Positions 12,001 to 49,147 of a stretch of 49,811 bases of DNA are shown in pieces (position 1 is the stretch's first letter; every line of letters begins with the position of its first letter). The position numbers were made by a program, and so were the translations under genes. The notes below the pieces were generated by a model. That model saw only the letters and a list, made by a program, of their open reading frames with translations. It ran no database searches and had not been told where the DNA came from. The stretch lies in the IMG/VR virus record IMGVR_UViG_3300005326_000015; one strand, written 5' to 3'. The stretch comes from a virus.

Positions 12001-14139
12001 GCGAAGGCCGTTAACCCTGAATTTGAATATGAAGCATTGAACGACGCAGACTTTGTAACAGACTTGAACGCTAAAGTTCAAATAAATCCATTCGTTGAGA
12101 AGGTTTCCGTGAACCAGGCCACCTTATTCCAGTTCGATGACAAGACAATTCAGAAGTTAGCCGAGCGGATGAGAGCCAAAGGGATATTCACGGAGCAGCA
12201 AATTGCTGATATTACATCTCCGTTGGGTCAGAAGTGGTTAAACAAGTACATTGATGAGCACCACAAAACCGTGTTCCAAGGTACGGAAGCATATATTGAC
12301 AAGACTTTGAAGTGGTTGGATGACACTCAGGCTCAAAAGGTCTTCGAGACATCCGTCACAGCCTCTATGGCCGATTTGATTGAAACCTTGCCAAGAACAG
12401 TACGCTCAGCCAAAGTGTTTGATGCAATACTGTCTCCGTCGGTGGCTGAAATGGGAAGCCCGAACTCACCATTCCAATGGATTGAATTCGAGGATGAACT
12501 GGTCAGCGCTGTTAAAAACGAACAGGGTGAAGTCATTAAAACCATTACCAAAAAGAAGATGCCAAAAGCACCGTTGGGCTTCAAACGGATGTCCAATTCC
12601 CAGGTGCAGGAGTTTATTACAAAGATTGAGCGCTTAAACAATTTCATTCAAAGTGATGAGTTGCTGAGCGTGGCTGACTGGATGAAGAGTCAACTTGCGA
12701 AGAACGCAAAGAACCCAACAGGCCAGTTAGTGATTGAGGCCAATGTGGCGCGGGTGCTTGAGTTGGATTACAACAAAGTATCCGGAGCGTTGCTGAAATT
12801 CGTTGACTTCTCAAACAACTTATTCAAACGAAACAAACTGTTATCCCTTGCCTTCAACATCCGCAACAGCATCGGTATTACGACGAACATGTTCTTGTCG
12901 GGTATGGAGTTTACAGACATTGCGCGCAGTTTTGCAAGGGCAGACAACATCTTCAAACAAGGACCTGAATTGCTGGCCAGGGCTGCAAGAGCCGACATAA
13001 ACACGCTGAGCAAGATATTCAGTCCGGAAGAGATGAAGATATACCAGGCCTATGAAATGTTCATTAAAGGACAGTTCACGCTGCCAAGAACCATAAAGCA
13101 AGCGATTGCGGAAGGTCTCTCCGGCTCAGGGTCTGAGTTGATGGATTTGGATGGAATTAAAAAGGACATCACGAAAAATGCTAAGATGCCTGAATGGCTC
13201 CAAAAGAGCAAGGATGCCCTGGATACTGTGTCGATTGTCAATGGATGGGGAAATGAAACTGTGGATGCTTATGGTCGTATGGCTGTAATGGTGCATGCCA
13301 TGGAAAATCCTGAGTACCTGCAAAAGTTGATGGTCCAGGACCCGATTGCCGCCGTTCGCTTAGCCATGTTTGACCCAAAGAACCTGTCCTCTTATGAGAC
13401 AGAGATTGCCAAGCGGGTCATCCCATTCTATTCATTTACGAAGCAGAACTTAGTCTATCATATGCAAAACCTGCCAAACAATGCGGTCCGCTACAACAGA
13501 ATCCAAAAAGGATTGCGCAGCGCATGGAATGGTATGGGATTAAAACAAGAAGATTTGGAAGCCTACAAACTGGAGCAAATGTATATCCCGATTCCAGGGA
13601 TGTCAGCGGATGGCAAGTACTTCGCCATTAAAGCGAACCTACCACAATCCGACTTCGGCGAATTCTTAGGTAATCCAATTCAACGAGTGCTTGCATCCAC
13701 TTCCCCGCTCATTCGGGCCGGATTTGAAGTGGCAACCAACAAGCAAATATTCACCGGACAGGAAATATCCGAATTCCCTGGTCAGCGCAGCAGCACGATG
13801 CCATTCCTTGATAGGAATACAGAGTACTGGCTGAGCCAAGCAGGGTTGGATGTTCCAATGAAAGGTCTTACCGGATTATACAACGCAGCAACAGGGCAAG
13901 ATGTCCAAGGAGGTCTCATGCAAGCGTCAAACATTATCTCTCAAGGGTCCAAAGAGCAAGGTCAACTAAACCGCGCCTACCAAACTTTAGAGAGATTGCA
14001 ACAAGGTGTCCGCTACCTTAAACAAGAGGAAAAGGACTTACTCAAACTGGCTGAAATAAACAGTCCGACCCCAGCACTGGATGCAGCCCAAAACAAAATG
14101 GATGCACTTATGGCTAAACTAAAAAAAGGCCCCCGATAA
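6076..14139 (+). CDS. Giant multidomain (polyvalent-type) protein, 2,687 aa, with putative ADP-ribosyltransferase-like segment
   Basis: Uninterrupted 8.06-kb ORF. ATG at 6076 lies 6 nt after AGGAGGA (the track start 6055 is a GTG inside the previous gene). Pro-rich KAPEP linkers at 9226..9309, ~11430 and ~11935 suggest domain boundaries. The motif YHYGD..(N22)..GHFGTGTYFLGEE..(N19)..LNEVNF lies at 10444..10614. A bidirectional terminator follows. Confidence 0.9.
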   Translation: MSKIDELLNRLGQSAAKGTIDAIGQTQGAANKSPLLEVQNQVDNLAARMQGSGIDPTQFTDTRNPLEKMLNLRPDQNLLFDIFEVINRPQQALFGGIQHLQEGGDFLKGMEQGLTRTGAEEFSGGQILRNMFSGGKREDGTMDWTDWVGFGLDVFADPADLAFLPVSAVANVGQAATKLTGKASTKMDNLIKGGMAALGKTDVNTVAKVANVADDVMDVGEKTMASMAKDSYKLIREGEKFVSPTDLTMRALFGTVSFGLKGADAKLAEPLMTVLGKAEDYGNFKKVVSNFFNQTKAFSKEAVANIRLAFGEEAFAKKYMYEALKATDELLESWAGQLGVTPQRLSEMMGEYWSVTSPEQMMRASDILLKQRGAQLIPYSDEMYESLSKMVNSEQAIGDLMPVIEFEGLSYIDLRKITREMVDQSAKETSLAIPKMIKHLDVDNISKYADMPLFEQAYTDWYVQYQRMRKGLWSIQGSEFGMGTEYLRNVLTEDARHALAEVDALNHVFDLGGQTTNKTMGDPTLFAGRKYGADPITASNWIKAERTLDTMERMEKVLGARAKVSNATADAIQAAKLVEAQALEAGSKIKIDRRVRDLLDEFMEETGVTQDMLDIYTVMMENKLAKTEVGRDLIRQAKAVGLVGEDEKILDVSSHRFTVGEKSGSTLIETLDPEDYNRLVSLKASDPNFQSKVSKEVYNAIGSQPIPMKFKDGTALTKQQAKGYNKLTTWVQRLKELRAPTLTGMKSEGIMQIVDDTVWSKIDDESLKGIAYRSKVIEATDDIAEGLTSVPLKHVDLEEAAQGLAKEPDFLKKVVDNLNKATNNASSEVALGDLISRPESIIDYARREVLRQAREQYTYRQMKTGIQELLGRAATDEDMARAVALAEAGKPLHPRLFDPNFNIWQRTIDNLDGDFAKAKELGKGLKDGTYDLKTGKKLDLEGDDSYMVSFEQSSDAYTPEEYNKIIKELMDETGSEAYLGVYGQPEISFKVATEEEAMALAKRFNQESIYFNGRVLEDGTKVPADLIMNPDYNPATNQIIRDVVEEVPVTKAPEPIITPEDIKAPEPVKAPEPAAPAEKTYLDKKIELDEFETKELSSIMNINKRGTSVKPFRKKVLSKDLDDYIAKGLSDDVGEDSFFRAFNITDHKGAKGRLEGRDYEPLTKAQYADRGLEKYTPLNSNAPKLRVVDRELAQNHHEIKRVRRAMEKLDAQMGTNYANTGLLGEIYKEVDETADALAKMKPEGHQIYKTAADSRDKLVGKLQKDLKLPSKKSVDALANETLVDNAFSNSRVASELRLRAADYPVVDSFTMRSEVMEVLSEDAYAMMTGNILSKEFNDRFGTIAGRTNLNTPFSEETQTYLQRLYDEVQKVRQGSFPYAKFMQDGVLDEERAFEALNDYMKSVNGMSVPELQEEMRRAYNAIDEIKRTKYDLRQVLESEEALQNLQNTYQKTNNKAYHYGDLGIGRDTTFKNMGSSRGTGHFGTGTYFLGEEAAESTGKISSYAGRPLNEVNFDDYATFKPATEEAGFALHDGLKEINAVSDNVQSMWTGRPYTDAEGWTHYPETMQMTDREMAKIVREAMTNGKLSTDLSKVMDDALDYNQRAISAGKIDLYYANLFDSFVEEFSEKGADTLNRYSALLPANLKTVFDDLIAKTKDGVAEVSDFTGREVGDIVNIFEGMSNIHKASNKALKKFEKAGLPRMNKSVEEFVTSLIETVKKGMSGDDMAPTASTNFMKMIGYEGIDVRGLKALDNTTYGSVIYDVKKAAQEAPEAAAVKVTPDDFAAKAPEKVTETLPFDYNTNDYKGTVPARTLNAQSKKVTLATPEEFNVMESLYKRSGRRAFADDPYVFERLVAGKPGMKMKTIFEIEDTLNNINQKINEGTMSLTEKELDDLYTLMQKIDAEFGTDLSKHSILSKKKFDTYNKRLSDYNAQKLASTPKVDDSVDILDEVTGKAPEPELDINAMFKEAEPPVQTAKAVNPEFEYEALNDADFVTDLNAKVQINPFVEKVSVNQATLFQFDDKTIQKLAERMRAKGIFTEQQIADITSPLGQKWLNKYIDEHHKTVFQGTEAYIDKTLKWLDDTQAQKVFETSVTASMADLIETLPRTVRSAKVFDAILSPSVAEMGSPNSPFQWIEFEDELVSAVKNEQGEVIKTITKKKMPKAPLGFKRMSNSQVQEFITKIERLNNFIQSDELLSVADWMKSQLAKNAKNPTGQLVIEANVARVLELDYNKVSGALLKFVDFSNNLFKRNKLLSLAFNIRNSIGITTNMFLSGMEFTDIARSFARADNIFKQGPELLARAARADINTLSKIFSPEEMKIYQAYEMFIKGQFTLPRTIKQAIAEGLSGSGSELMDLDGIKKDITKNAKMPEWLQKSKDALDTVSIVNGWGNETVDAYGRMAVMVHAMENPEYLQKLMVQDPIAAVRLAMFDPKNLSSYETEIAKRVIPFYSFTKQNLVYHMQNLPNNAVRYNRIQKGLRSAWNGMGLKQEDLEAYKLEQMYIPIPGMSADGKYFAIKANLPQSDFGEFLGNPIQRVLASTSPLIRAGFEVATNKQIFTGQEISEFPGQRSSTMPFLDRNTEYWLSQAGLDVPMKGLTGLYNAATGQDVQGGLMQASNIISQGSKEQGQLNRAYQTLERLQQGVRYLKQEEKDLLKLAEINSPTPALDAAQNKMDALMAKLKKGPR
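12064..12081. repeat. TTGAAC-N6-GTTCAA palindrome (copy in giant ORF, in-frame LNAKVQ)
   Basis: ttgaacgctaaagttcaa; TTG is a codon in the ORF frame. Confidence 0.9.
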
Positions 14140-14152: not shown

Positions 14153-15043
14153 TTATGCCTTCGTTTTACGGAAGGTAGCATTGACATAAGTGGTGCCAGG
14201 TTTGCGGTACATATCCAAGTTCAAGTCAGGATTGTCTAAGGTCAACAAGGCTTCATCCAAGCCTCCTTTACGGAAGACTTCACTGATGGACATGCTGAAT
14301 CCGATGCCACTAAACTTCACATTCTCATAGCGTTCTTTGAACCATTCACTCAAGTCTTTTTCCCTGGCTTCAAGTTCCTTGATTTCCTGCTTCAGTTCAA
14401 ACAGTTCATAGGCTTTTTCTTCAGCCTCTGTGCTGAATTCGGCTTCTTTGATGACAACCCCTTGAGCGTTGTATTTTGAATTGTAAAGTTCAATAAGGTC
14501 ATAAGGGAAGTTTTTATAATCTTCAATACCATTGAGGCAAGCGAACACAAAGTCCACCATTTGCTCCATAAGCCCGATAAGTTCATCGTCGCGGCGAATT
14601 GTCGTGTAGATAGGCTTTCCCTTCCACATCCCGCAAAGCAGCGCCTGAGTGGCCCCTGTGGCCTGCATATAGGCTTGTACTTGAATCGCATAGCCTTTAC
14701 TCTGTGTGAATGGCTCTTGAGCGTTGGAGATTTTACATTCAACGACGGTCATTTCACCGTCGATAATGGCCATACCGTCGGTTTTACAGCGGATGCGTTC
14801 ATCGAAGGCATAGCGCACTTTTTCGTTGCGCTCTCCGATGCTAATTTGAAGTTTGTTCTCAAAGTAGTTGAGAGCACCTTCTTCAAGGAATGTTCCCCAG
14901 TCCATGCGGTCTTGCGCATCCTCTGTGAATTCCTGTTCGTCAATACCTAAATCGAAACGGATTTGTTCGGTTGGTGAATTGAATCCTACACCGAAGTAGG
15001 ACCCCAAACTGGATGCTGTTAGAGTGAATCTTTCTTGTTTCAT
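14153..15043 (-). CDS. YqaJ/lambda-Exo-like PD-(D/E)XK recombination exonuclease
   Basis: 296 aa. The D...ECK signature (KTDGMAIIDGEMTVVECK) and overall layout are typical of YqaJ-type viral exonucleases. An annealase gene is present elsewhere in the same block. Confidence 0.7.
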   Translation of the reverse strand: MKQERFTLTASSLGSYFGVGFNSPTEQIRFDLGIDEQEFTEDAQDRMDWGTFLEEGALNYFENKLQISIGERNEKVRYAFDERIRCKTDGMAIIDGEMTVVECKISNAQEPFTQSKGYAIQVQAYMQATGATQALLCGMWKGKPIYTTIRRDDELIGLMEQMVDFVFACLNGIEDYKNFPYDLIELYNSKYNAQGVVIKEAEFSTEAEEKAYELFELKQEIKELEAREKDLSEWFKERYENVKFSGIGFSMSISEVFRKGGLDEALLTLDNPDLNLDMYRKPGTTYVNATFRKTKA

Positions 15044-15046: not shown

Positions 15047-15301
15047 TTAACCCTCCATTTTCGTTATTTCATAATCAAAGAATAAACGGATGCTCTTCTT
15101 ATTCTTCCCCATCCCGCCATTATGGCCGTGAGGTACTGGCTCTCCAAAATCGACATAATACATATCCATTTCCTTGTAGGCCTCGTATCGGTCTATTTTG
15201 GCAACGGTACCTACCATGTCCTGGTAGATTTCGGAATTAGGTATTGTGAGGTCAGGAGAGGTCACTTTGACTCTATCTCCTACTTTGATGATTGCTGGCA
15301 T
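15047..15301 (-). CDS. Hypothetical small protein (SH3/KOW-like N-terminus?)
   Basis: The start at 15301 (MPAIIKVGDRVKV) follows GGAGGG and overlaps the upstream stop (TAATG). The longer track ORF has no RBS. Confidence 0.55.
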   Translation of the reverse strand: MPAIIKVGDRVKVTSPDLTIPNSEIYQDMVGTVAKIDRYEAYKEMDMYYVDFGEPVPHGHNGGMGKNKKSIRLFFDYEITKMEG

Positions 15302-16290
15302 TATTGCCCTCCTTTCAAGATGGCGGACCATCGTTTGACAATATAGTCATTTTGCGGCTCATACAATGGCAGCCGCTCAGGTGATGTTGGAAAATCTTTC
15401 CAGTCATAATTTCCATGAGGCACTGTTGGGTCATCCGTGAATGGATACCATACCACAGGTGTGCCTAAGGCTTGCGCTTCCAATGTGACCATCCCGAAGG
15501 TCTCAAAGTCACTGAGCATAAACAGGAAGTCTGCATTTCGCATATACGGATAAGGGTTTGCGCGTGGTCCTATAAACAAGGAGCGCTCATGGTTAAGCAA
15601 CTCATCAGGGACATATTGCCACGCGGCTTCGACATGAGGCTCTCCGACAATGACCAGGAATAGGTCTTCTCTTTCATTCAGGATTTCCAAGGCGCGCACC
15701 CATCCTTTTTCCGGAGAGATGCGACATACCATTAGGCCTCTCAAATACCCATCAGGCCACAGGGTCTGTAAACCTTTCATGAGGTCAGGCATGATTTTGC
15801 TTGATTTTCTCATGATGTTATTTACATCTAATATGTTTGGGATGACATGATATTCTGAGCGTGGCACTTCCAAACTGAAGGTCTCATATTGCCATTGACT
15901 GACAAACACTTTAGGCATGTCTTCAAATCCCAACGGTCCTTTTAGAAGACTCCGCGGGCAATGCAGCCAAGCCACTTTTCGGGAGGATGTCACAAACTCA
16001 GAGATGTCTTTCTTGCAGAAGGGTGAGCAGTAAACCAACACATCCACATGCTGCGGCTTCTTGCTGCGCTCTACACGCGTCACTCCTCCCACTCTTCCAA
16101 CTCTATCATGACATAAGCGCTTTGTAAACATAATTTCGTCAAAAACCTTAATCATTTTGTCGTCACCATCCTCATAACAGAGGCTGACATCGAACTCCAT
16201 GGTGTGTAATAGCATCCGTGCCAAATTGTACACCGCCATCTCAACTCCTCCTAAGACTGGCTTAGGTATATAAAACATTATTTTTTCCAT
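15301..16290 (-). CDS. GT-B fold glycosyltransferase (GT1/GT4-like)
   Basis: 329 aa. C-terminal ...FMLSDFETFGMVTLEAQALGTPVV... matches the E-x-FG-x4-EA-x2-G-x-PV signature of family 4/1 glycosyltransferases. Confidence 0.75.
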   Translation of the reverse strand: MEKIMFYIPKPVLGGVEMAVYNLARMLLHTMEFDVSLCYEDGDDKMIKVFDEIMFTKRLCHDRVGRVGGVTRVERSKKPQHVDVLVYCSPFCKKDISEFVTSSRKVAWLHCPRSLLKGPLGFEDMPKVFVSQWQYETFSLEVPRSEYHVIPNILDVNNIMRKSSKIMPDLMKGLQTLWPDGYLRGLMVCRISPEKGWVRALEILNEREDLFLVIVGEPHVEAAWQYVPDELLNHERSLFIGPRANPYPYMRNADFLFMLSDFETFGMVTLEAQALGTPVVWYPFTDDPTVPHGNYDWKDFPTSPERLPLYEPQNDYIVKRWSAILKGGQ

Positions 16291-16996: not shown

Positions 16997-17150
16997 CTTT
17001 ACTCTCCTTTTCTTTTACCCAATGCAACTTTTTACCACAATTTGAACAATAATTAGGTTTTGTGGTATCTGTTTCCCATTCGCCTAAATAAACAATTTCA
17101 TCACAATTATTACAATGCCAATCACCACAATTTAAATATGGTTTATTCAT
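16989..17150 (-). CDS. Small zinc-ribbon protein (53 aa; not in ORF track)
   Basis: MNKPYLNCGDWHCNNCDEIVYLGEWETDTTKPNYCSNCGKKLHWVKEKESKDE. It has C-x5-C-x2-C ... C-x2-C, its start lies in a GGAGAGTAAAGATGA junction, and it fills an otherwise empty 150-nt gap. Confidence 0.55.
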   Translation of the reverse strand: MNKPYLNCGDWHCNNCDEIVYLGEWETDTTKPNYCSNCGKKLHWVKEKESKDE

Positions 17151-17508
17151 CTTTACTCTCCTCTTTCCTGGTTTTTATCTGTATGTCATACAGTGCAGGA
17201 TTATCTTTGTGAAACTGGTCCACATTCAACAGTGACAGCGCATTGAATACTACCGCTGCCAAATGGTCTTCGTCCTTCTTTCCCATCATGTATTTGGTCA
17301 AGTGGCGCATCAGGCTGCCTAAGCAGGCCGATTGAGGCTGTCCTAAGCGCCAATTATGATTCCCATACTTTCGTCCTCCTTCTCCGTAAAGAGGCGCTAC
17401 GCGAAGCATGAGGAGGTCATACGGCAGCAATTCCATCTCAGGTTTACCTTCCGCGCTGTCACGAACGGCTCCTGTCACAAATTCTCTTTTCTTTCCGCTA
17501 CTTAACAT
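17143..17508 (-). CDS. dATP/dGTP diphosphohydrolase N-terminal-domain-like protein
   Basis: FVTGAVRD..GKPEMELLPYD..GGRKYGNHNWRLG..LGSLMRHLTKYMMGKKDEDHLAAVVFNAL matches the conserved pattern I recall for this phage nucleotide-hydrolase family. Confidence 0.6.
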   Translation of the reverse strand: MLSSGKKREFVTGAVRDSAEGKPEMELLPYDLLMLRVAPLYGEGGRKYGNHNWRLGQPQSACLGSLMRHLTKYMMGKKDEDHLAAVVFNALSLLNVDQFHKDNPALYDIQIKTRKEESKDE

Positions 17509-19814: not shown

Positions 19815-20041
19815 TCTTCTGCATCCAATCCATCGACAAACCCTTCCAAATAGGCCATGGCTTCGACTTTGTGCTCAAACACACGCTCTACCATCTTATG
19901 CCCTTTTCTGAACAAATAGATACGAAAAGGATTCCATTGTGATATGTCGAGTTTTGCGCTTATAGTGATGTGAGGATAGTCTTGATTTATTTTAGCACAC
20001 TCCTCATTGAGGCACTCAAGTTGAGTTATGTAGTTATTCAT
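19811..20041 (-). CDS. Hypothetical protein
   Basis: The start at 20041 (MNNYITQLE) follows AAGGAGA. ATGA overlap with the VRR-NUC gene. Confidence 0.55.
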   Translation of the reverse strand: MNNYITQLECLNEECAKINQDYPHITISAKLDISQWNPFRIYLFRKGHKMVERVFEHKVEAMAYLEGFVDGLDAEE

Positions 20042-20258
20042 TTTCAGGGTCTCCTTGCCTCGCAATACCTGCGTTGGCCCACATAACCACTTCTTCCAGT
20101 TTAGTCAATGCTAAAGCCCGCTCTCTTCCAATAGGCACAACATCGTTGATAAAGTGGGCCAAGCGTCTGCAACGCGTCCTCACTTCTTCAAAAGCCATCT
20201 CATTTTCTTTGACAGGTTTATGATAACTAAACTTATTGTCAATGTCTTCAGGTCTCAT
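20034..20258 (-). CDS. Small helical-hairpin protein with N-terminal FSYHKP motif (possible Acb2/Tad1-hairpin-like nucleotide sponge)
   Basis: The start at 20258 (MRPEDIDNKFSYHKP...) follows GAGGAG with a TAATG overlap. Sequence: ...RCRRLAHFINDVVPIGRERALALTKLEEVVMWANAGIAR. Confidence 0.6.
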   Translation of the reverse strand: MRPEDIDNKFSYHKPVKENEMAFEEVRTRCRRLAHFINDVVPIGRERALALTKLEEVVMWANAGIARQGDPENE

Positions 20259-20602: not shown

Positions 20603-22690
20603 TTATATTTTCTCCTTTTCCGCCCAGTTTGTTTGGGACATTTCTATTTCACACAGCATCGGGACCCAAGGGATAGTTTTTACTAAGTCCTGCATAATGT
20701 TCTGAATTTGAACTGCAAGGTTCAATTCTGATTCATGTAGAAGGAAAACCAACTCATCGTGGATACTCATAGCGAATTTGGATAACTTTCCACGCAAGAG
20801 TTTAGCCACGGATAATTGTGCTTGTTTAACAATCTCAGCACAGGTCCCTTGAATTCGGTAGTTCGCGCCCTTATAAAAGAAGGAAGGGTCGCTGATGTAG
20901 TAACGACGACCATAAATGTTCGTTGTGTAACCTAAACGGTACAACTCTTTACTTGTGGCCTTTTGATAATTCTTAATCTTCGGGAAGGCCTTATAGTAAC
21001 CTTCGTCCAAGGATTTTGCTGTTTCCTCATCCAAGTCCAACTGTTCAATAATGGCTCCGACACCGCCTCCGTAGTTTTTCAGGAAGTTGGCCATCTTGCC
21101 CCATTTGCGGTACTTCTTAAACTTCGGATGGTCTTTGGTCAGCCACGCGAAGGCATGCAGCGTCGTTTCATCATGAACCTCTGTTGCAATCCACTCTGAG
21201 CCGTCCTCATTGACCCATTCTCCGCTGTTCCAACGCTGAATGTGCTCTAAGTTCTTCGGGTCAAAGTCTTCAAAGGTATCTACGCTCACGCATCCAAAAG
21301 GCATATAGGCGCGGCATAAATTGAAGTCAGGCTCTCCTAACAAAATAGTGTAAAAGGCCTGCACCCTCAACTCCATCTGAGAGTAGTCGAGGAAGGTCAT
21401 TGTATAGCCTTCATCCGTTATGAATGGTTTTCGTGGATGGAATAACTCTGTGGTCTCATCATCCTCATCGGCTAAAAATGGGTCCTTTGGCTGCTGCTGT
21501 AAGTCTGAACTCACGCGGCCTGTCTTCGTTCCTGAATTGTTGATAGTCGTATATAAACGGCCATCGACCATGTTTTTCAATTTACCGTCAATATAAGTAC
21601 CTATCCACTTATCGGCTGTACGAAGGCGACGGATGATTTCAGCCATTTCTTTGGCCTCATCGGAGCCTTGACTCTCACCAATTTTCTTCATGGTCTTCTT
21701 GTCTGCATTTCCTAACATCATCCCAAACTGGGTCTCATAAATCTTTTTAATGACATCATGCTGGCCGGAAGAGAATTCCTTGCCAGTGATTTCTTTCAAG
21801 CGGCCATAGAGTTTCTGCTGGAATTCAATCATCCGCTGTCTTGACTCAAGCAGGTAATCAATATCCATCCTGAACCCGACACGCTCCATGTCTGCCACGA
21901 CGCGTATAAGGTCACACTCCTGATGAAAAATCTCAAAGCCAGGGTCGGTAACTCTTAAAGTAGGCATGGCTCTTTTCAAATATTCCAGCACGATGACAAT
22001 ATCATCCGCTGCATAATTCAGCATCAGCGCTTCTTTTTCCATATAAACATCGTGGAAGTTGGCAGGGCTGTACAATTCATCTATAAACTCAAAATATTCA
22101 TCATACTCTGTTTTGACAAAAGGTACGCGTTTCTGCCAAGCATCCATCACTGGCTTGAAGTTGACTTTCGGATACATCTTTTTGAATTCATCTTTCAAGA
22201 AGTTCCGTTGCGCCTTGTTTATTAAAGTCATGTGATGCTTGATGGAATCCTGTGCTGCTTTTGAATTCTTATCTACATAAGTTGAACCCAATGATTCAAG
22301 ACTCATACCAACTTCAGAGTCCGCATATTCGGTCAGTCGAGCGACGGAAGTACTGTCTGCCAGTCTCACATCCTCCGGAATATCAAATCCAAAGTTCGTG
22401 GTCATGTGCAGGTCAAACTTCGCGTTATGGGCGAACATGTAATCACACTTCGCGGCCATTGCAAACATTGAACTCAATAGTTCAAAAGTAGGCTCAAACA
22501 GGTAAACATACTTATCGAAGCCGAAGGCATAGAGAAACGGACGCGCCACCATGTGATGCAGTCCGTTCGTTTCTGTGTCATAGGCCATGATGGAAGGCAT
22601 GGTTTTGGCGAAGGTCTCATTCGCTTCCTCCATGTCTTTCATGGTCCTGATAACCTTCATTTGGTATTTGAACTTTTGATGTAAAAACAT
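20603..22690 (-). CDS. Family A DNA polymerase with 3'-5' exonuclease domain
   Basis: Exo I YDTETNGL; Pol motif A FLDYSQMELRV; motif B RKWGKMANFLKNYGGG; motif C SIHDELVF. Confidence 0.9.
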   Translation of the reverse strand: MFLHQKFKYQMKVIRTMKDMEEANETFAKTMPSIMAYDTETNGLHHMVARPFLYAFGFDKYVYLFEPTFELLSSMFAMAAKCDYMFAHNAKFDLHMTTNFGFDIPEDVRLADSTSVARLTEYADSEVGMSLESLGSTYVDKNSKAAQDSIKHHMTLINKAQRNFLKDEFKKMYPKVNFKPVMDAWQKRVPFVKTEYDEYFEFIDELYSPANFHDVYMEKEALMLNYAADDIVIVLEYLKRAMPTLRVTDPGFEIFHQECDLIRVVADMERVGFRMDIDYLLESRQRMIEFQQKLYGRLKEITGKEFSSGQHDVIKKIYETQFGMMLGNADKKTMKKIGESQGSDEAKEMAEIIRRLRTADKWIGTYIDGKLKNMVDGRLYTTINNSGTKTGRVSSDLQQQPKDPFLADEDDETTELFHPRKPFITDEGYTMTFLDYSQMELRVQAFYTILLGEPDFNLCRAYMPFGCVSVDTFEDFDPKNLEHIQRWNSGEWVNEDGSEWIATEVHDETTLHAFAWLTKDHPKFKKYRKWGKMANFLKNYGGGVGAIIEQLDLDEETAKSLDEGYYKAFPKIKNYQKATSKELYRLGYTTNIYGRRYYISDPSFFYKGANYRIQGTCAEIVKQAQLSVAKLLRGKLSKFAMSIHDELVFLLHESELNLAVQIQNIMQDLVKTIPWVPMLCEIEMSQTNWAEKEKI
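20708..20725. repeat. TTGAAC-N6-GTTCAA palindrome (in polymerase gene, in-frame LNLAVQ on minus strand)
   Basis: ttgaactgcaaggttcaa. Confidence 0.9.
22468..22485. repeat. TTGAAC-N6-GTTCAA palindrome (in polymerase gene, other frame)
   Basis: ttgaactcaatagttcaa plus the following aag gives 21 nt identical to the reverse complement of the copy at 32104..32121. Confidence 0.9.
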
Positions 22691-27161: not shown

Positions 27162-28040
27162 CTATATCCGATTTTTCAGGCCTGCATGGAATTTGTCAAT
27201 GTCAGGCAATTTTCTTAACTTGTCGCGAAGTACATCGTCGCTGTCCTTGTCAGGCTGGACGGCAAACTTGTAAGTGCGCAGGAAGGCGGGATTGAAGATA
27301 CGCAAAGCGCCCGATAATTTGTCAGGGTCTGCACAGTTCCGAATCAACTGGATGACAGCCTCAACCGTATCGGTTGGCTCAGCCTCCACATGCTCCACTT
27401 CCATTTCTTGAACTTCAGAGTTCAAAGATTCAGGGAGAGGGTCAGAAGCAGCAGCAACATCGACAACTTTATTTGCAGCCTCATTGACCACTTTGATAGC
27501 ATCTACTGTGCGTTGGGTCGCGGTCTTCTTTGCTGTGTTAGGTGCTGGCGGTGTCTCAGGTTTCACATCTTCTTCAAACTGAAGGTCTTTGCCTTCATAC
27601 AATTTCAGGCCAAGGCCAGTCGCGCGAGCCACTAAGCGGGCCTTAGCGCGTTGAAGGGCCTTATTGACCATGTTTTGGTCGAAGTACTTCGGAGCCTCAT
27701 ACTTTTCATTTTGAATCGGGTAAGTCTCCACAAAAGTGCGGCCCATAAAGGTGATTTTCAATTTCACGAAGTTCGCAATGTGTTGAGATATAATCGTATC
27801 TCCTTTGTTAACCGTCGTGATGGTCTCAGCCTGTACATGGACAAAACCGCCCTTTTCATTTTCTACAATTTCAATAACACATTCAGGGTCCTGCATTATG
27901 GCCAATCGTTCCATTGTGGCCCAAGGCAAGTAAGGGTCGTTCTTAAAGTTTTTCTTGATAAACTCTTCGATTGACTTTGATTCAACGGACTTTCCGTTGT
28001 AATTGTCAGTGTAAACCGACAACCAAGTTTTGTTTTCCAT
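27162..28040 (-). CDS. Rad52-like (Sak/Erf-type) single-strand annealing protein
   Basis: The start at 28040 (MENKTWLSVY) follows AAGGAGGAAAA. NKALQRAKARLVARATGLGLKLYEG is the hallmark C-terminal helix/GLGL-LY motif of Rad52-type phage annealases. Acidic tail. Confidence 0.6.
   Translation of the reverse strand: MENKTWLSVYTDNYNGKSVESKSIEEFIKKNFKNDPYLPWATMERLAIMQDPECVIEIVENEKGGFVHVQAETITTVNKGDTIISQHIANFVKLKITFMGRTFVETYPIQNEKYEAPKYFDQNMVNKALQRAKARLVARATGLGLKLYEGKDLQFEEDVKPETPPAPNTAKKTATQRTVDAIKVVNEAANKVVDVAAASDPLPESLNSEVQEMEVEHVEAEPTDTVEAVIQLIRNCADPDKLSGALRIFNPAFLRTYKFAVQPDKDSDDVLRDKLRKLPDIDKFHAGLKNRI
27408..27425. repeat. TTGAAC-N6-GTTCAA palindrome (in annealase gene, in-frame LNSEVQ on minus strand)
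   Basis: ttgaacttcagagttcaa; shares AGAGTTCAAAGATT with the copy at 49103. Confidence 0.9.
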
Positions 28041-28917: not shown

Positions 28918-29468
28918 TTTCCTCCTGTCGGTGTAAATGTACCGAACTTTCCTTCCCTGTTCATTCTTGCCAATTCAACTTCGATGTCCTTTTGAACTTC
29001 ATCTTTCAAAAACTGGATGTAGGTCTTATACATATAGTAGCCTTTTTCCAAGTACTCTTTATGATAGTCCATCATAAAATTTGATATCCATGCGCAAGGT
29101 ATCTCCAAATAAATTCCGCTGTTCAAATACAAGTGCGGCCATAAACTGTTATTCACAACCGATGGTCTGCTCTCTAAAAAAGCACCATCATTTTGTACAA
29201 ACCACTGGTCCGCATACTTGTTCTTAATCTGCTGGATGACAACGAATGGGCTAAAACCAGGTCCGCCAATGTAACCCAAGCAGCCATCCTTCAGCCAAAC
29301 TTCTCTCAGGCCAAAGAAGCCATCCTTCAGTACTGACAGTATAAACAACTCCAAGACAAAAACCAAGTCCAAAACATGCGAGCCGTCACGCGCATAGTTA
29401 TTACGCGCAAAACCATCGTCGGTCATCTCAAACACTGGTGTCTCCCCATACAAATTAAAATTTTCCAT
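28914..29468 (-). CDS. Hypothetical protein
   Basis: The start at 29468 (MENFNLYGE) follows GGAAGGAGAAAAAG. Confidence 0.55.
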   Translation of the reverse strand: MENFNLYGETPVFEMTDDGFARNNYARDGSHVLDLVFVLELFILSVLKDGFFGLREVWLKDGCLGYIGGPGFSPFVVIQQIKNKYADQWFVQNDGAFLESRPSVVNNSLWPHLYLNSGIYLEIPCAWISNFMMDYHKEYLEKGYYMYKTYIQFLKDEVQKDIEVELARMNREGKFGTFTPTGGK

Positions 29469-29586: not shown

Positions 29587-29822
29587 CGTAAACTTGACTC
29601 CGAGGGATGGAGTTCCCATCCCTTGAACATTTTCTTAAAGACAATGATGTCTTTCAAAGCCAGTGCATAACACTCAAATACATGAAGAAGTTCGGTCCGT
29701 TTTACAAGGATGACATCCGCGTCCTTTTCGTTTGAAAGGCTCTTGATATTTTCTTCAATGATGGCCAAAGTCTCTTCTAACTTTTTTTGAACTTCATCGT
29801 TCAATTCTTCAGTCGTTCCCAT
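29583..29822 (-). CDS. Hypothetical protein
   Basis: 79 aa with RBS AAGGAGGAAC. Confidence 0.55.
   Translation of the reverse strand: MGTTEELNDEVQKKLEETLAIIEENIKSLSNEKDADVILVKRTELLHVFECYALALKDIIVFKKMFKGWELHPSESSLR
29787..29804. repeat. TTGAAC-N6-GTTCAA palindrome (in-frame LNDEVQ on minus strand)
   Basis: ttgaacttcatcgttcaa; a 17/18 near-copy lies at 28992..29009. Confidence 0.9.
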
Positions 29823-31448: not shown

Positions 31449-31766
31449 TCAGTCCTCCTTTTGAACTTTTGAGTTCAATAATGGTGATTCATCCAAATAC
31501 TTGAGAATGACGGCTTTGGCCTCATCGCGGTCCTGCGTCATTCGTACTTCCTTCAAAAACTTTTCTCTTTGGTCTGCCTTGATGTAATGGCATAATTGAC
31601 GCGCTGCATCATTGATGGCCTCACAATACCAATAGGCCTCCCATGGTCGATTGACATAATGTGATTTTCCGTGCGCCAGCAGGCCCCATTTCCCTGTGTC
31701 AAAAACTTTAACATGCAAAGTGTTTTTGGCTTTTGTGCGCGTGCTTGTGAATTCAAAGGTAATCAT
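31449..31766 (-). CDS. Hypothetical protein
   Basis: 105 aa. The N-terminus MITFEFTSTRTK resembles the N-terminus of the 34318..34566 product (TAFEFTSTTTT). Confidence 0.55.
   Translation of the reverse strand: MITFEFTSTRTKAKNTLHVKVFDTGKWGLLAHGKSHYVNRPWEAYWYCEAINDAARQLCHYIKADQREKFLKEVRMTQDRDEAKAVILKYLDESPLLNSKVQKED
31461..31478. repeat. TTGAAC-N6-GTTCAA palindrome abutting the SD of the 30650..31447 gene
   Basis: Minus strand reads TTGAACtcaaaaGTTCAAAAGGAGGactgacATG. It also encodes LNSKVQ at the end of the upstream gene. Confidence 0.9.
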
Positions 31767-32103: not shown

Positions 32104-32121
32104 TTGAACTATTGAGTTCAA
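32104..32121. repeat. TTGAAC-N6-GTTCAA palindrome abutting the SD of the 31763..32092 gene
   Basis: Minus strand reads aatTTGAACtcaataGTTCAAAAGGAGaaactATG. The TGA inside the left arm is the stop codon of the upstream gene. Confidence 0.9.
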
Positions 32122-33592: not shown

Positions 33593-33610
33593 TTGAACTC
33601 AATGGTTCAA
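33593..33610. repeat. TTGAAC-N6-GTTCAA palindrome abutting the SD of the 33112..33579 gene
   Basis: Minus strand reads TTGAACcattgaGTTCAAAAGGAGcacaaaaATG. The 18-mer is identical to the copy at 34641. Confidence 0.9.
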
Positions 33611-34640: not shown

Positions 34641-34658
34641 TTGAACTCAATGGTTCAA
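34641..34658. repeat. TTGAAC-N6-GTTCAA palindrome in the 34567..34662 intergenic gap
   Basis: ttgaactcaatggttcaa. On the minus strand it is followed by an 8-bp stem / 3-nt loop hairpin (GCATCAGG-cat-CCTGATGC, 34600..34618) and then the SD. Confidence 0.9.
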
Positions 34659-42098: not shown

Positions 42099-42929
42099 AT
42101 GGAAAAGAAAGAATACCAAGATGACGCTTTTGAGTCAATAGATGATATTGACAAAGCCTTAGCAGAAGAATTTCCGGATTTGTTTGGTGAACCCGCGGAT
42201 GAACTAGACAAAGACACTCCTGCTAAGACAGTCGAACCTACGGCAGACCCTATCCCAGTACCTGAACCGATTGTGGAAAAGATAGACGAACCCGCAGCAC
42301 CGACAAAACCCACTCAGGAAGACAAGCAAGGACATGCTTTTGCGGAATTACGCAGAAAAGCCGCCGAGACGGAGGCTGCGTTAGCACAGCGAAACGCTAT
42401 TCTTGAATCTATGGCTAAAACCTCAGGGTTTAAGTCAGTCGATGAGTACACTAAGGCTATTCAAGAGAAACTACTTGAAACTGAAGCCAAAGCGAAGGGT
42501 GTGGCACCGGATGTTTATAAGCGGATGACGGCTGTGGAAGCCGAACTTGAGCAACTCCGTGGTGAAAAAACTACGCGAGAAAGAGCAGGTAAACTTGAAA
42601 ACTTCAAATCTTCATTGGACAAGGTTGTCCAACAGTATGGCTTGTCCGACGCGGACAAAGAACTTGTAATTGCTCGTCTTGATGAGCAGAACTACACTCT
42701 TGATATGCTACTTTCAGTACCCCAACCGGATGCACTTATCAGAGGAGTTCTCTTTGACAAGATTGAGGAAAAACTCAAGTTAGCGAAAGCAAGTACACAA
42801 GCCAAAAAATTAGAAGGTGTTGATACGCAAGGTATCAATTCTGCTCAAGCCACTCCGAAGACACTGGACCAAATACTCGATGAGGAAATGCAAGCCTATG
42901 CGAAATCGCGAAACATTGCATTGAAATAA
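42099..42929 (+). CDS. Scaffolding protein
   Basis: 276 aa with RBS GGGAGGT. Acidic N-terminus, then long Ala/Glu/Lys helices. Lies directly upstream of the capsid gene. Confidence 0.6.
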   Translation: MEKKEYQDDAFESIDDIDKALAEEFPDLFGEPADELDKDTPAKTVEPTADPIPVPEPIVEKIDEPAAPTKPTQEDKQGHAFAELRRKAAETEAALAQRNAILESMAKTSGFKSVDEYTKAIQEKLLETEAKAKGVAPDVYKRMTAVEAELEQLRGEKTTRERAGKLENFKSSLDKVVQQYGLSDADKELVIARLDEQNYTLDMLLSVPQPDALIRGVLFDKIEEKLKLAKASTQAKKLEGVDTQGINSAQATPKTLDQILDEEMQAYAKSRNIALK

Positions 42930-46981: not shown

Positions 46982-49147
46982 ATGAAAATTAAACTAGCGC
47001 CAGGGAGTGGAGGAGAGTATCAACAAGATGCTGCCTCCAACACCCGCCGCAGAGAAATCAGAGCCAAACGCATTACGGACGGTTCCCTTGAGGAAGCGTT
47101 CTTTCTGCTTCAACCGGACAACATCACACAATCCGTGTTTAGCACTCCTGCTTGGGACAGTTTTGCCAGCAGCAAAGAAAACACCGTAGTTCGCAGCGCC
47201 ACAGAGCCTGTGACAAAAACGATGAATATGTTGTGGATGGACACTTCGGCTGTGCCTAACATTTTGAAAAGATGGGATGGCAGCCAATGGGTGTTAACTT
47301 CGTTTGACCAGGCAAGTATTGAAGCAACGGCGAATTCTATTGCGTCAACGGTTGTATCTACTGTACAAATCGGTGGTGAAAACTTTGTAAAAAACGCAAG
47401 TTTTGGAAACGGTGTTATAAATTGGTCAGGTTCAGGAACACTCATTGACACGGCTGTCGGTTTGTCCGATACAAACAGTTGCAAATTATTAGGTTCAGTC
47501 GCGGCAGTGTATCTTTTACAAGATGTTTACCCTGTCCCTTTACCTGGAAAAAATATTGATTTAGTGACCTCTGCTTATGTGAAAAGTGTAAGTGTCGTTC
47601 GGGGTGCAACAAATCCATTGATTTGCCTTCGTGTTCAGTACCATTACACGGACGCAACTTTTGTTGATTATTTTTCTGAAGAAGTCATGAACGGAACAGA
47701 AGATTGGAAGAGATTGCAAATCGTGCAAAAGACTGACCAAACAAAGACTATATCCAAACTCCGTATATTCTTGTACGCAAGGGACTTTGCAGGTACTCTC
47801 TATTACGACGATGTACAAGTGGAATATGGAAATAAAGCAACTTCATTCGGTCTTTCAATGACTGAATACTCTCAAATTTTGCAGACTGCTAATGAGATAG
47901 TTCTTGCTGTCGGTACTGTCAAAGGTGGCCAGGACTCAATTATTCCTTACACACAACAGACCTGGGTTCAAGGAGGCATTGACGGAACAGGTATAAATAT
48001 TGCAGCCACAGGAAGACTGCGCTTGATTGACTATGTGACTGTGGAACCTTTGACGGATTATGTATTCAAAAAGAGCAGCAACTGTGAAACGGCGGTTTAT
48101 TGGTACAACTCCTCGAATGTTATTGTAGGAGTTAACGGCTGGATAACTCAAAATGAATTTAAGATAAATTCTCCTGCAACAGCAGTTAAAATGAGAATTT
48201 CGTTCCGTAAGAGTGCAGCAGAGCCTGTTATTACGGTTGCCGAGATGCCTAACTACCAAATAACCGGAAGCAGAGCCACACGCTTTTTATCCGGTGCACG
48301 ATACATCTTTGATGACACAAGTTTTAGAATTAGGAATGTCGCTGGAACTGATGTTTTGACGGCAGACACAGATGGAAACTTACTTGTCACTAACTTAATG
48401 CGCGTAGGTGCCACACCAAACGCAGGTTTAAACGGTGCAGGTACAGGTGGAACGACCATAAGAATGTGGGCCGGAGCAGCAACTCCTGTAACCAGCGCGG
48501 ACTTCTATGTACGCGATGATGGTTATATGAAAGCATCCAGTGGTCTAATTGGTGGATGGTCTATTTCTTCCACGGCCTTGGCTAAAGGAAATTTAAGTTT
48601 GAGTGCTTCCGGAACTAACGGAACCATCTCGATGGGTGGAGCAACCTTAACCTCTAATGCTTCAGATACAATTACCTTGACAGGTGCTCTGCTATTTGCA
48701 GGTAGTCCTGGGGCCTCTAACGGTGGATTTAATGCAGGAACTAATATTACAACAGCCACAACGCGCTTGAATTACAGTGGTTACTTATACGCGGTTGGTT
48801 TAAGATATGGAGCAGGCGGAAACAGTTCATACTCAGATGTCCGAATGAAAGAAGATATTGAAACCTTAGGCATGTTCAAGGCCACAGACTTCATTATGGC
48901 TTTGTCTCCAAAACAGTTTAAATTCATTGACAGGGCCGAAGACAAATTGACCTATGGATTGGTGGCTCAGGAAGTTGAAGCCGCCATTAAAAAAGTCGGT
49001 TTACCTCCGCTGTCTCTGCTTCGTGTACCTTACGAAGATGATGAATACTATGGGTTGGATTACTCTCAATTCATTGCTCCGTTGATTGCAGCAGTACAAT
49101 TATTGAACGCAAGAGTTCAAAGATTAGAAGGAGGATTTGCATGGTAA
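46982..49147 (+). CDS. Tail fibre/spike with carbohydrate-binding module and C-terminal S74-type intramolecular chaperone
   Basis: The N-terminal LWMDTS..PNILKRWDGSQWV motif is common in Gram-positive phage tail proteins. A CBM-like segment runs GENFVKNASFGNG..W ... YYDDVQVEYGN. The C-terminal SDVRMKEDIETLG ... YGLVAQEVEAAI is the auto-cleaving chaperone signature. Confidence 0.8.
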   Translation: MKIKLAPGSGGEYQQDAASNTRRREIRAKRITDGSLEEAFFLLQPDNITQSVFSTPAWDSFASSKENTVVRSATEPVTKTMNMLWMDTSAVPNILKRWDGSQWVLTSFDQASIEATANSIASTVVSTVQIGGENFVKNASFGNGVINWSGSGTLIDTAVGLSDTNSCKLLGSVAAVYLLQDVYPVPLPGKNIDLVTSAYVKSVSVVRGATNPLICLRVQYHYTDATFVDYFSEEVMNGTEDWKRLQIVQKTDQTKTISKLRIFLYARDFAGTLYYDDVQVEYGNKATSFGLSMTEYSQILQTANEIVLAVGTVKGGQDSIIPYTQQTWVQGGIDGTGINIAATGRLRLIDYVTVEPLTDYVFKKSSNCETAVYWYNSSNVIVGVNGWITQNEFKINSPATAVKMRISFRKSAAEPVITVAEMPNYQITGSRATRFLSGARYIFDDTSFRIRNVAGTDVLTADTDGNLLVTNLMRVGATPNAGLNGAGTGGTTIRMWAGAATPVTSADFYVRDDGYMKASSGLIGGWSISSTALAKGNLSLSASGTNGTISMGGATLTSNASDTITLTGALLFAGSPGASNGGFNAGTNITTATTRLNYSGYLYAVGLRYGAGGNSSYSDVRMKEDIETLGMFKATDFIMALSPKQFKFIDRAEDKLTYGLVAQEVEAAIKKVGLPPLSLLRVPYEDDEYYGLDYSQFIAPLIAAVQLLNARVQRLEGGFAW
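49103..49120. repeat. TTGAAC-N6-GTTCAA palindrome (in tail-fibre gene, in-frame LNARVQ)
   Basis: ttgaacgcaagagttcaa. Confidence 0.9.

Follow-up and report, generated by a model that had tools for sequence, protein, structure and literature searches.

Why should a single 18-nt palindrome, TTGAAC-N6-GTTCAA, recur in one phage genome, and on which molecule is it read? The window (the whole stretch of 49,811 nt analysed) is a circular, nearly complete assembly from an uncultured animal-gut phage that is podovirus-like and has a capsid protein of the N4-gp56 family; metagenomes of pig and wolf gut are the source of its relatives. Its genes diverge from an AT-rich region at ~35.7 kb, and its early region opens with two consensus host-type promoters (36370 and 35565). 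Within this layout, the motif is most likely a recognition hairpin or protein-binding site controlling early and replication genes.

All ten exact copies and all five one-mismatch copies listed by an earlier sequence-only reading were recovered where it had placed them. Dinucleotide shuffles predict 0.01 exact copies, and the 15 sites at no more than one mismatch compare with 0.24 expected, bearing out its claim of a large excess over chance. The arms are separated by 6 nt in every copy. TTGAAC/GTTCAA did not occur at any other spacing between 0 and 30, and no other hexamer arranged in the same way, h-N6-rc(h), gave more than one pair. Seven exact copies are coding and three are non-coding. 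The description of the motif as mostly in-frame was an overstatement. Synonymous-codon and codon-order shuffles, both of which leave non-coding sequence untouched, retained 2.6 and 2.3 exact copies, because essentially only the two or three untouched non-coding copies remain. Neither codon usage nor composition therefore accounts for the seven coding copies.

The peptide LNxxVQ (Leu-Asn-x-x-Val-Gln) occurs exactly six times in the proteome against 0.16 expected, and all six are spelled TTG AAC nnn nnn GTT CAA, a spelling with a probability of 0.03 per peptide from codon usage. These are the six coding copies that had been assigned to a single phase, and that assignment stands; the coding total is seven, and the seventh (22468) uses the other stop-free frame. 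With one-mismatch copies included, the phases split 9:3. At 20708 the DNA polymerase reads ELNLAVQI where relatives read ELHLIPKL, without an indel, and the site therefore arose by amino-acid-changing substitutions. The motif is maintained by selection on the nucleotide sequence, and this selection is strong enough to rewrite protein sequences. The shuffles, the peptide spelling and the substitutions at 20708 thus lend strong support to the earlier proposal of nucleotide-level selection for a dispersed site. An artefactual origin of the pattern, in chance, in codon usage or in an LNxxVQ helix motif that recurs in proteins, has virtually no probability left. Several copies do lie in helix-like charged segments (LNDEVQK, LKDEVQK, LYDEVQK), but the shuffles, the single codon spelling, the non-coding copies and the three coding copies in another frame refute it.

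The motif clusters in the leftward early and replication operons. Eight of the ten exact copies fall within 20.7-34.7 kb, the leftward early/replication block (binomial p = 1e-3), and "genome-wide", the term first applied to them, is too broad. Motif density follows the temporal class of the genes: the promoter-proximal early block (28.2-35.2 kb) holds five exact copies and one variant in 7 kb, the replication block three exact and two variant copies in 14 kb, and the late genes two exact and two variant copies in ~28 kb.

On the minus strand, the first copy of the early operon (34641..34658) is intergenic, 4 nt past the stop codon of gene 34663-35187 and 74 nt ahead of the ATG at 34566. The copy at 33593..33610 (minus) is also intergenic, downstream of a terminator-like hairpin. 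That at 32104..32121 (minus) fills the 25-nt gap between two early genes and overlaps only the upstream stop codon, which is the TGA within TTGAAC. Three further minus-strand copies lie within early genes: 31461..31478 in the final 9 codons of a 105-aa gene; 29787..29804 from codon 7 of a 79-aa gene (LNDEVQ), 17 nt downstream of its ATG; and the one-mismatch copy 28992..29009 in a 184-aa gene (LKDEVQ), followed by AAGGA.

Minus-strand copies continue through the replication genes. The Sak-like annealase gene carries 27408..27425 (aa 206 of 292, LNSEVQ). The DNA polymerase gene carries 22468..22485 (aa 69, second stop-free phase, F-E-L-L-S-S-M), the one-mismatch copy 22282..22299 and, near its 3' end, 20708..20725 (aa 656 of 695), where LNLAVQ replaces the LHLIPK or LDIIPD of relatives. 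A one-mismatch copy in the second stop-free phase (14476..14493) lies in the RecE/YqaJ-like exonuclease gene. On the plus strand, the giant late gene (2,694-aa product) has one-mismatch copies at 8254..8271 (TTGACC..., aa 734), just past its conserved N-terminal part, and at 10165..10182 (TTGTAC..., aa 1371), and an exact copy at 12064..12081 (~aa 2004, phase TTG AAC, LNAKVQ), shortly before its conserved C-terminal part. The remaining plus-strand copy (49103..49120, LNARVQ) lies in the final 14 codons of the tail-fibre gene, 20 nt ahead of the ATG of gene 49141 and 5-7 nt ahead of its Shine-Dalgarno (SD) ribosome-binding sequence. Some copies share longer tracts: 21 nt in inverted orientation between 22468 and 32104, and AGAGTTCAAAGATT between 27408 and 49103, both as previously noted, as well as 22 nt in direct orientation between 33593 and 34641.

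In three early cistrons the motif keeps one fixed register relative to the SD. At 31461, 32104 and 33593 the 3' arm is immediately followed by the SD of the downstream gene (GTTCAA/AAGGAGG with ATG at 31447, GTTCAA/AAGGAG with ATG at 32092 and GTTCAA/AAGGAG with ATG at 33579). The order of GTTCAA/AAGGAG, 5-7 nt and ATG is identical in the three, which have nothing else in common. The probability that at least three of ten random sites would lie flush with one of the 56 SDs is 6e-5. Two more exact copies, 49103 and 29787, are associated with starts at the distances given above; the other five are not.

The polarity of the motif is tied to the direction of transcription. The ~15 copies have the sense-strand consensus A-TTGAAC-N5-A-GTTCAA-A, with A before the 3' arm in 12/15 and A after it in 12/15, against T at the mirror positions in 5/15 and 4/15 (sign-flip p = 0.009). 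With codon-context frequencies as the reference, A12 is present in 7/9 phase-0 coding copies (p = 0.003) and A19 in 8/9 (p = 0.002), with the mirror positions at expectation (2/9 each). Without the four SD-linked copies the polarity signal is weaker (p = 0.05). No polarity would be predicted for a symmetric dimer bound to double-stranded DNA, and the polar flanks therefore count in favour of an mRNA stem-loop. If replication starts at ~35.7 kb, however, transcription and replication-strand polarity coincide, and polarity is then no proof of an RNA role.

Folding predicts a stem-loop in mRNA with 6-8 bp (-4.4 to -6.3 kcal/mol) and loops of 4-6 nt, whose sequences are not conserved among copies. 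In native sense RNA the predicted stem has a mean pair probability of 0.87, compared with 0.73 in transplanted controls (p = 0.07). The arms are identical in all ten exact copies, and four of the five one-mismatch variants break a pair, leaving 22282 as the sole variant that keeps pairing in sense RNA (by a U-G wobble). Three of the five mismatches affect the innermost position of the arm. Only one compensated variant was seen (TTGGAC-N6-GTCCAA at 42615), a number within chance expectation. No covariation was seen among the motif copies, in which invariant pairs are uninformative rather than contrary, and the motif had no match in Rfam.

A search of related phages, which the sequence-only reading had suggested, found the motif absent from L003-L005, L143-L146 and API480; relatives sharing 55-77% protein identity lack it. 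The closer clade carries unrelated small hairpins flush against the SD of early genes. Counting perfect hairpins of at least 5 bp and unrelated sequence in the leftward genes of the window and of L003-L005, 21 of 94 genes have one ending flush with the SD, against 43 of 846 for anchors displaced by 10-90 nt (Fisher p = 1.5e-7). The enrichment remains when motif copies are removed (p = 5e-6) and was not seen in late genes. Conservation of structure beside the SD, without conservation of sequence, suggests that this position has a single-strand (RNA) role.

We tentatively favour an mRNA stem-loop that is read sequence-specifically by a putative protein, either a translational regulator or an endoribonuclease. 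The element would act as a stem-loop within polycistronic phage mRNAs, its invariant stem and A-rich flanks being recognised by a putative protein of phage or host origin, for which a translational repressor or a processing/decay endoribonuclease is the candidate. At cistron boundaries, binding or cleavage beside the SD would set the translation and stability of the downstream cistron; copies within the polymerase, annealase, exonuclease and giant genes may time the decay of those messages. The polar sense-strand flanks, the fixed geometry with the translation start at three copies, the habit of this lineage of placing unrelated hairpins flush with the SD of leftward genes, the stem predicted in native sense RNA and the dependence of copy density on temporal class all argue for this proposal. 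Several observations fit it poorly. The loops are not conserved, yet most known hairpin-reading RNA-binding proteins read the loop too; covariation is lacking; the short stem is weak; four of the exact copies are located well inside ORFs, distant from starts; and the polarity is less marked once the SD-linked copies are set aside. The early proteins included no recognisable RNA-binding protein or nuclease, and equally no recognisable DNA-binding protein. Identical arms with a strict N6 and a free spacer are, moreover, the classic signature of a dimeric DNA-binding protein.

That signature is the core of the main rival, which we regard as possible and rather doubtful. The motif would be a double-stranded DNA operator or roadblock for a homodimeric DNA-binding protein, either from the orphan early block of the phage or from the host, which binds along the leftward operons and modulates or shuts off transcription. 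Analogues would be the mycobacteriophage stoperators, the conserved inverted repeats of phiC31 and the 17-bp repeats of Cluster O under their proposed interpretation (PMC4351075). The core is a perfect dyad with invariant 6-bp arms, and the centres of GAAC and GTTC are separated by 10 bp, close to one turn of the helix. Absent covariation, variants that disrupt pairing, mismatches gathered at the innermost arm position and the share of copies in the early/replication block also favour an operator. TTGAAC is a known half-site of the wHTH protein DeoR of B. subtilis, whose left half-operator is ATTGAACAAAATTTCAAT (PMC11229326), with TTGAA and TTCAA separated by 6 nt rather than the 8 nt of the motif. 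The palindrome TTGAAC-N6-GTTCAA is also found in a LysR-linked intergenic region of Faecalibacterium. Against an operator stand the polar flanks and the SD register, which would be meaningless for DNA unless the three sites evolved from pre-existing SD-flush palindromes. No copy overlaps a convincing promoter, and the consensus promoters at 36370 and 35565 have none. All 36 leftward proteins, ~30 of them small and the majority orphans, were scanned with Pfam and PHROG, and no HTH, RHH or other DNA-binding domain was found. As roadblocks, the copies at 12064 and 49103 would hinder late transcription.

It is improbable that the motif works as a single-stranded DNA hairpin that becomes exposed on one of the template strands while the DNA replicates or recombines and that signals priming, loading or recombination. 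A primase-helicase, a Sak-like annealase and a RecE/YqaJ-like exonuclease, all encoded by the phage, might use such a signal, the polarity would fit a replication strand equally well with genes diverging from ~35.7 kb, and the 21-22 nt identical tracts hint at copy-paste by short-patch recombination. The SD register is left unexplained, however, a stem of 6 bp has little strength as DNA, DnaG-type primases have trinucleotides as their known recognition sites, and the relatives that lack the motif carry the same replication genes. A target of a DNA-modifying, restriction-like or nicking enzyme is also improbable. The resemblance to Type I/IIB sites, as a bipartite palindrome with N6, is purely formal, and the encoded glycosyltransferase and MazZ-like domain might be connected with DNA modification; restriction targets are normally depleted, not enriched, in phages, the conserved 6+6 bp with polar flanks exceed Type I half-sites, and no methyltransferase or nuclease of matching architecture was found in the phage. 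The SD register and transcription polarity would again go unaccounted for.

The N4-gp56-family capsid, the giant late gene and a motif able to form a hairpin upstream of early genes recall N4, with the copies as hairpin promoters for a virion RNA polymerase hidden in the giant ORF. This is highly improbable and largely refuted. Pfam, PHROG and PDB gave no sequence match for the giant ORF, which also lacks DxDGD and T7-like motifs; the central 1,250 aa of its product are orphan, and their sole database match has a tail tape-measure-type domain (PF10145). The early region begins with host-type promoters, the loops are 4-6 nt rather than 3 and are found in both orientations, and a start ~5 nt past the stem would remove the SD. 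Two further candidates were rejected. An intrinsic terminator does not fit a stem with two G-C pairs out of six and an A-rich 3' flank, and no copy appeared in terminator scans. The Gram-positive LexA (Cheo) box shares the GAAC/GTTC cores and has N4 rather than N6 spacing, as had been pointed out from the sequence; GAAC-N4-GTTC has 0 copies in contrast to 11 for GAAC-N6-GTTC. Such boxes would be expected in promoters of SOS or prophage-induction genes, whereas 7/10 copies lie in ORFs and none over the consensus early promoters.

Analogues in other phages, like the early-block concentration, the SD juxtaposition and the strand polarity, go beyond what the sequence-only reading had described. 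RNase III hairpins of T7 and GGAG sites of T4 RegB occur as multiple sites in early messages, where cistrons meet or in SD regions, and set differential mRNA stability and translation in the early-to-late switch. RNase III sites are long irregular duplexes and RegB reads a tetranucleotide; neither is an invariant 18-nt palindrome or embedded in ORFs at the frequency seen here. In Cluster A mycobacteriophages, stoperators have an orientation with respect to transcription and lie mainly at gene boundaries. They are asymmetric sites of 13-14 bp for a monomeric two-domain repressor of temperate phages, whereas here the flanks are polar and the core is perfectly palindromic, most copies lie in ORFs, and no repressor or integrase was found in the phage. 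As here, many copies of a short site are spread across the genome, and repressor binding at stoperators is reported to stop transcription elongation (PMC9283540, PMC6550527). The start-associated sequences (SAS) of Cluster K mycobacteriophages are conserved short sequences directly upstream of many start codons, and extended SAS (ESAS) add imperfect inverted repeats just upstream, with a suspected, unproven role in translation initiation (PMC3203893). SAS take in the ribosome-binding region itself and form no palindrome, ESAS are imperfect repeats of 17 bp whose spacer varies, and both are confined to gene starts, where only 4-5 of our 10 copies lie.

The literature search found no paper describing TTGAAC-N6-GTTCAA, in agreement with the sequence-only reading, which knew of no such system. 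The nearest likeness is to the 17-bp dyad repeats TGTTCGG-N3-CCGAACA of Cluster O mycobacteriophages, present in tens of copies per genome and absent from the host and from other phages, for which a dimeric binding protein and possible recombination between copies have been suggested (PMC4351075). Both have invariant inverted arms, a variable centre and few one-mismatch variants, mix intergenic, start-proximal and mid-ORF copies, and are enriched in a leftward non-structural operon. They differ in sequence, in arms (7 versus 6 here), in spacer (3 versus 6 here) and in their unrelated hosts. The Cluster O repeats are conserved across five related genomes, whereas no relative here has the motif, and they lack evident transcription orientation, in contrast to the polar flanks and three SD-locked copies of this phage. 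By its different sequence and spacing and its absence from relatives, the motif is an analogue, not a homologue, of the Cluster O repeats; it adds a new member to a known type of phage repeat.

The inverted repeat TTGAAC-N6-GTTCAA occurs exactly ten times in the window (copies starting at 12064, 20708, 22468, 27408, 29787, 31461, 32104, 33593, 34641 and 49103) where dinucleotide-preserving shuffles predict 0.01, in agreement with the sequence-only reading, which had counted at least ten. The five one-mismatch copies that it listed (8254, 10165, 14476, 22282 and 28992) are likewise present, giving 15 sites within one mismatch against 0.24 expected. Two-mismatch copies show no enrichment (7 observed, 4.1 expected), and the family therefore has about 15 members. 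The spacer is invariably 6 nt, and the remaining spacings between 0 and 30 have zero copies; the arms occur in the window neither in reverse arrangement nor as direct repeats, and TTGAAC is the sole hexamer in it with more than one h-N6-rc(h) pair.

Selection on the motif at the nucleotide level is established. A gene map built from ORFs and Shine-Dalgarno (SD) sequences assigns about 95% of the window to coding DNA. In the codon-preserving controls that the sequence-only reading had proposed, shuffling of synonymous codons within genes left 2.6 exact copies and shuffling of codon order left 2.3; these are essentially the non-coding copies, which such shuffles leave untouched. The peptide Leu-Asn-x-x-Val-Gln occurs exactly six times in the proteome, against 0.16 expected from composition, and all six are spelled TTG AAC nnn nnn GTT CAA, a spelling with a probability of 0.03 per peptide under the phage's own codon usage. 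In the second stop-free frame the single compatible peptide, FELLSSM in the polymerase, is also a copy of the motif. The shuffles and the spelling of the LNxxVQ peptides exclude chance, codon usage and a protein motif as explanations. At 20708 the polymerase reads ELNLAVQI where four relatives have ELHLIPKL, ELDIIPDL and similar; the alignment contains no indel, which rejects an inserted 18-bp cassette as the origin of this site and implies that it arose through amino-acid-changing substitutions. The shuffles, the peptide spelling and the substitutions at 20708 thus bear out the earlier proposal of a dispersed, selected site. The motif is an unusually clean case of nucleotide-level selection, in which the 12 letters of a recognition site have dictated both codons and residues in genes of an uncultured gut phage, namely those for the polymerase, annealase, tail fibre and giant virion protein.

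The placement of the copies departs in two respects from the first description. Seven exact copies are coding rather than six, the overlooked one (22468) lying in the other allowed phase; with one-mismatch copies included, the coding sites split 9:3 between the phases. The spread is also not genome-wide, as 8 of the 10 exact copies fall within 20.7-34.7 kb (p = 1e-3). The sub-family identities reported between 22468 and 32104 and between 27408 and 49103 are correct on sequence comparison, and 33593 and 34641 additionally have 22 nt in common. These last two copies are intergenic, and 32104, which takes up the whole of a 25-nt gap, provides the upstream gene with its stop codon. Copies thin out with distance from the early promoters: the early block (7 kb) has 5 exact and 1 one-mismatch copies, the replication block (14 kb) has 3 and 2, and the late genes (about 28 kb) have 2 and 2. 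Of the first five cistron groups in the early operon that are initiated independently, four have a copy ahead of them.

Three copies (31461, 32104 and 33593) share one register along transcription: GTTCAA is followed at once by AAGGAG, then by 5-7 nt and ATG. The sequences around them are unrelated to one another. One lies within the upstream ORF and another across its stop codon, and the third could have stood at any point of a 94-nt gap; the probability that at least three of ten random sites fall flush with any of the 56 SDs is about 6e-5. Elsewhere, 49103 lies 5-7 nt ahead of the SD of gene 49141, 29787 begins 17 nt past an ATG and 34641 is directly 3' of a stop codon. A terminator-like hairpin at 33623-33660 (GAGCGGA-N9-TCCGCTC then TATTTT on the - strand, T-rich on the + strand too) precedes copy 33593 by about 20 nt; should it act as a terminator, the cistron beyond it would need read-through or processing.

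Hairpins flush with the SD are a wider property of the clade. Among the leftward (- strand early and replication) genes of the window (14153-36285) and of three metagenomic relatives (L003-L005), 21 of 94 have a perfect hairpin of at least 5 bp ending between -3 and +2 nt from the SD, compared with 43 of 846 anchors displaced by 10-90 nt (Fisher p = 1.5e-7; 5e-6 without the motif copies). Their sequences are unrelated, for example AGCGT-AAA-ACGCT or ACGTG-AGAAA-CACGT, each directly followed by AAGGAG. What is conserved at this set distance from the SD is structure and not sequence, which speaks for a role of the position at the level of RNA. Motif copies make up three of the eight SD-flush hairpins of the window. 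The excess was not seen in late genes, in Paenibacillus phage API480 or in a low-GC clade (L145 and L146, 26-28% GC).

The core of the motif is a perfect palindrome and the positions adjoining it are asymmetric. In the sense strand, 12 of 15 copies have an A just before the 3' arm and 12 of 15 have one just after it, with the mirror-image T in just 5/15 and 4/15; before the 5' arm, A rather than T is found in 9 of 15. A sign-flip test of this polarity gives p = 0.009 (p = 0.05 without the four SD-linked copies). When the nine phase-0 coding copies are compared with codon-context frequencies, A12 is present in seven (p = 0.003) and A19 in eight (p = 0.002), and the mirror positions match those frequencies. 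The consensus on the sense strand is thus A-TTGAAC-N5-A-GTTCAA-A; beyond 1 nt on either side of the motif no flank conservation was found. Such polarity is not predicted by a symmetric dimer on duplex DNA, but is predicted by a function of one strand, either mRNA or lagging-strand template. Were replication to start in the AT-rich divergent region, the sense strand would coincide with the lagging-strand template.

Two explanations compete, and each accounts for what the other leaves unexplained. That the motif acts as a stem-loop in mRNA is our first choice, tentatively held; it better fits the polarity, the SD register, the clade-wide SD-flush hairpins, a stem predicted to form in sense RNA (mean pair probability 0.87) and the early-to-late gradient in density. 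Since the arms never vary, such a stem-loop would need to be read sequence-specifically, and its reader would be a translational repressor or a processing or decay endoribonuclease. An operator or roadblock bound by a dimeric DNA-binding protein ranks second, with somewhat lower confidence; invariant arms, rigid spacing, a free spacer and the lack of compensatory variants are what such a protein would produce. A base pair is lost in four of the five one-mismatch variants; a change in one arm is compensated in the other only in the two-mismatch TTGGAC-AAGGTT-GTCCAA at 42615-42632 (in late gene 42099-42929, upstream of the capsid gene), a single case at chance level. The two may also combine, SD-flush palindromes that were already present having evolved into the sites of a DNA-binding protein. 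The enrichment and polarity of the motif make a restriction, modification or nicking target unlikely.

Known elements with similar parts fit poorly. The spacing is wrong for a LexA box, as the sequence-only reading had already said, and for a DeoR-type operator, since TTGAA and TTCAA stand 8 nt apart in the motif rather than 6. A sigma-70-type promoter or activator site was rejected, there being no conserved -10 at a fixed distance on either strand and no conserved flanks, as was an intrinsic terminator, the stem being AT-rich and the tail A-rich. Hairpin promoters of the N4 type were rejected on several grounds: the giant ORF (6055-14139, +) lacks a polymerase signature and has an orphan centre of 1,250 aa, whose one database match has a domain of the tape-measure type; promoters of host type serve the early region; and the loop occurs in both orientations.

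The stem-loop explanation can be made more specific, in a form that we think rather unlikely. The motif would be the operator of an undescribed phage post-transcriptional regulon, an invariant polar stem-loop A-UUGAAC-N5-A-GUUCAA-A placed at cistron boundaries and inside the frames of early, replication and a few late genes, its stem read by an orphan early protein. This protein would be a hairpin-specific endoribonuclease or translational repressor that times message shut-off, and the generic SD-flush hairpins of the clade would be the evolutionary substrate of the system. Two host-type promoters built identically (TTGACA-N15-TG-TAATGT) stand at the head of the leftward transcription unit. 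One, at 36370-36342 (-), leads into a stand-alone 127-aa gene (35902-36285, GC 53%) with its own terminator (35896-35881); the other, at 35565-35537 (-), leads into a GC-rich, ORF-poor leader of about 350 nt (35188-35536) with no Rfam match. For the promoter-proximal block of 16 genes (28.2-36.3 kb), the relatives fetched offer no homologues. When all leftward proteins were scanned against Pfam and PHROG, no domain for DNA or RNA binding emerged. A 105-aa basic early protein, modelled from its single sequence with AlphaFold (pLDDT 67), gave no significant match in a fold search, and the corresponding model of the 127-aa protein (pLDDT 34) was unusable. Should one of the 16 orphan early genes encode a specific reader, this protein would add a compact new module for sequence-specific RNA or DNA binding, and would offer a simple entry into the gene regulation of a widespread, unstudied gut phage lineage.

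The nearest isolate, API480, has only 37% polymerase identity, and no GenBank phage matches at the DNA level. Related metagenome contigs number in the hundreds, two with record names indicating pig and wolf gut; identity to the window is about 59% for the primase in L003-L005, 75-77% for the capsid in L143-L144 and 55% for the primase in L145-L146. These seven loci and API480 contain zero copies of the motif and no comparable palindrome family in coding DNA. API480 carries AAGTGT-N2-ACACTT (4465, 41430, 42727, 44212) and TATATT-N2-AATATA (17786, 27533, 37781, 44919) at annotated promoters, and L004 has TGTATA-N3-TATACA three times inside 500 bp at the head of its early region (292, 360, 784); these palindromes lie in intergenic promoter regions. 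The only other contig carrying proteins of the window is 100% identical, without SNPs. Motif variants in viral, metagenome and genome collections were single chance-level matches only, and in one viral collection scan none of the 80 matches listed had more than one site. A cluster of three Faecalibacterium genomes (L059 at 3288, L075 at 3889, L127 at 1174) has one conserved intergenic site, an extended palindrome TTGTTTGAAC-TCAAAG-GTTCAAACAA flanked by a LysR-type regulator gene and by a flavoprotein/alcohol dehydrogenase operon. The site shows that the same palindrome can also serve a host in the manner of an operator; nothing was found to connect it with the phage.

No paper describing TTGAAC-N6-GTTCAA was found, and literature matches to phi13 and SCO3205 were irrelevant. 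The closest analogue is the 17-bp TGTTCGG-N3-CCGAACA repeat of Cluster O mycobacteriophages, for which a dimeric DNA-binding protein was proposed and a transcriptional role seemed unlikely to the authors (PMC4351075). Short dyad repeats that are dispersed and invariant within one phage lineage also include stoperators, the conserved inverted repeats of phiC31 and the SAS and ESAS of Cluster K. They are a known, poorly understood feature of a few cultured phage groups, their function open there too, and the motif is a new case in an unstudied gut phage lineage. It is distinguished by having most copies in reading frames at a cost in protein sequence, by polar flanks and by several copies locked to a ribosome-binding site. 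The selection signal is striking, precedents exist and no relative shares the motif. Two testable handles are added, namely strand polarity and a fixed ribosome-binding-site register in a clade whose early-gene hairpins are generally flush there.

Other features of the genome can be summarised briefly. The first 123 nt recur at the end (1-123 and 49689-49811), so the assembly is circular, of about 49.7 kb; an ORF from near 49441 crosses the junction into 178-960, and the seemingly non-coding window ends are thus coding. No Rfam families or tRNAs were found in the window. The - strand encodes a family A DNA polymerase, primase-helicase, SNF2 helicase, Sak-like annealase and YqaJ/RecE-like exonuclease. 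A 74-aa protein (20034-20258, -) with an Acb2/Tad1 hairpin domain (PF24729, E = 4e-18) is likely a cyclic-nucleotide sponge against CBASS or Thoeris defence. Genes for a protein with a MazZ-like dATP/dGTP diphosphohydrolase N-terminal domain (17143-17508, -), a glycosyltransferase (15301-16290, -) and a DUF3310 protein (20258-20602, -) may relate to nucleotide-pool or DNA modification. The orphan early block encodes a pentapeptide-repeat and DUF5758 protein (30650-31447, -), possibly a DNA mimic, and a SprT-like zinc metalloprotease (33674-34318, -). The + strand encodes an N4-gp56-family capsid protein, terminase, portal, a tail fibre with an S74 chaperone domain and the orphan-like 2,694-aa giant protein, which is conserved in relatives just at aa 7-710 and aa 2035-2686. 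Copies 8254 and 12064 lie at the borders of these conserved parts, and the giant proteins of relatives range from 2,645 to 4,031 aa.
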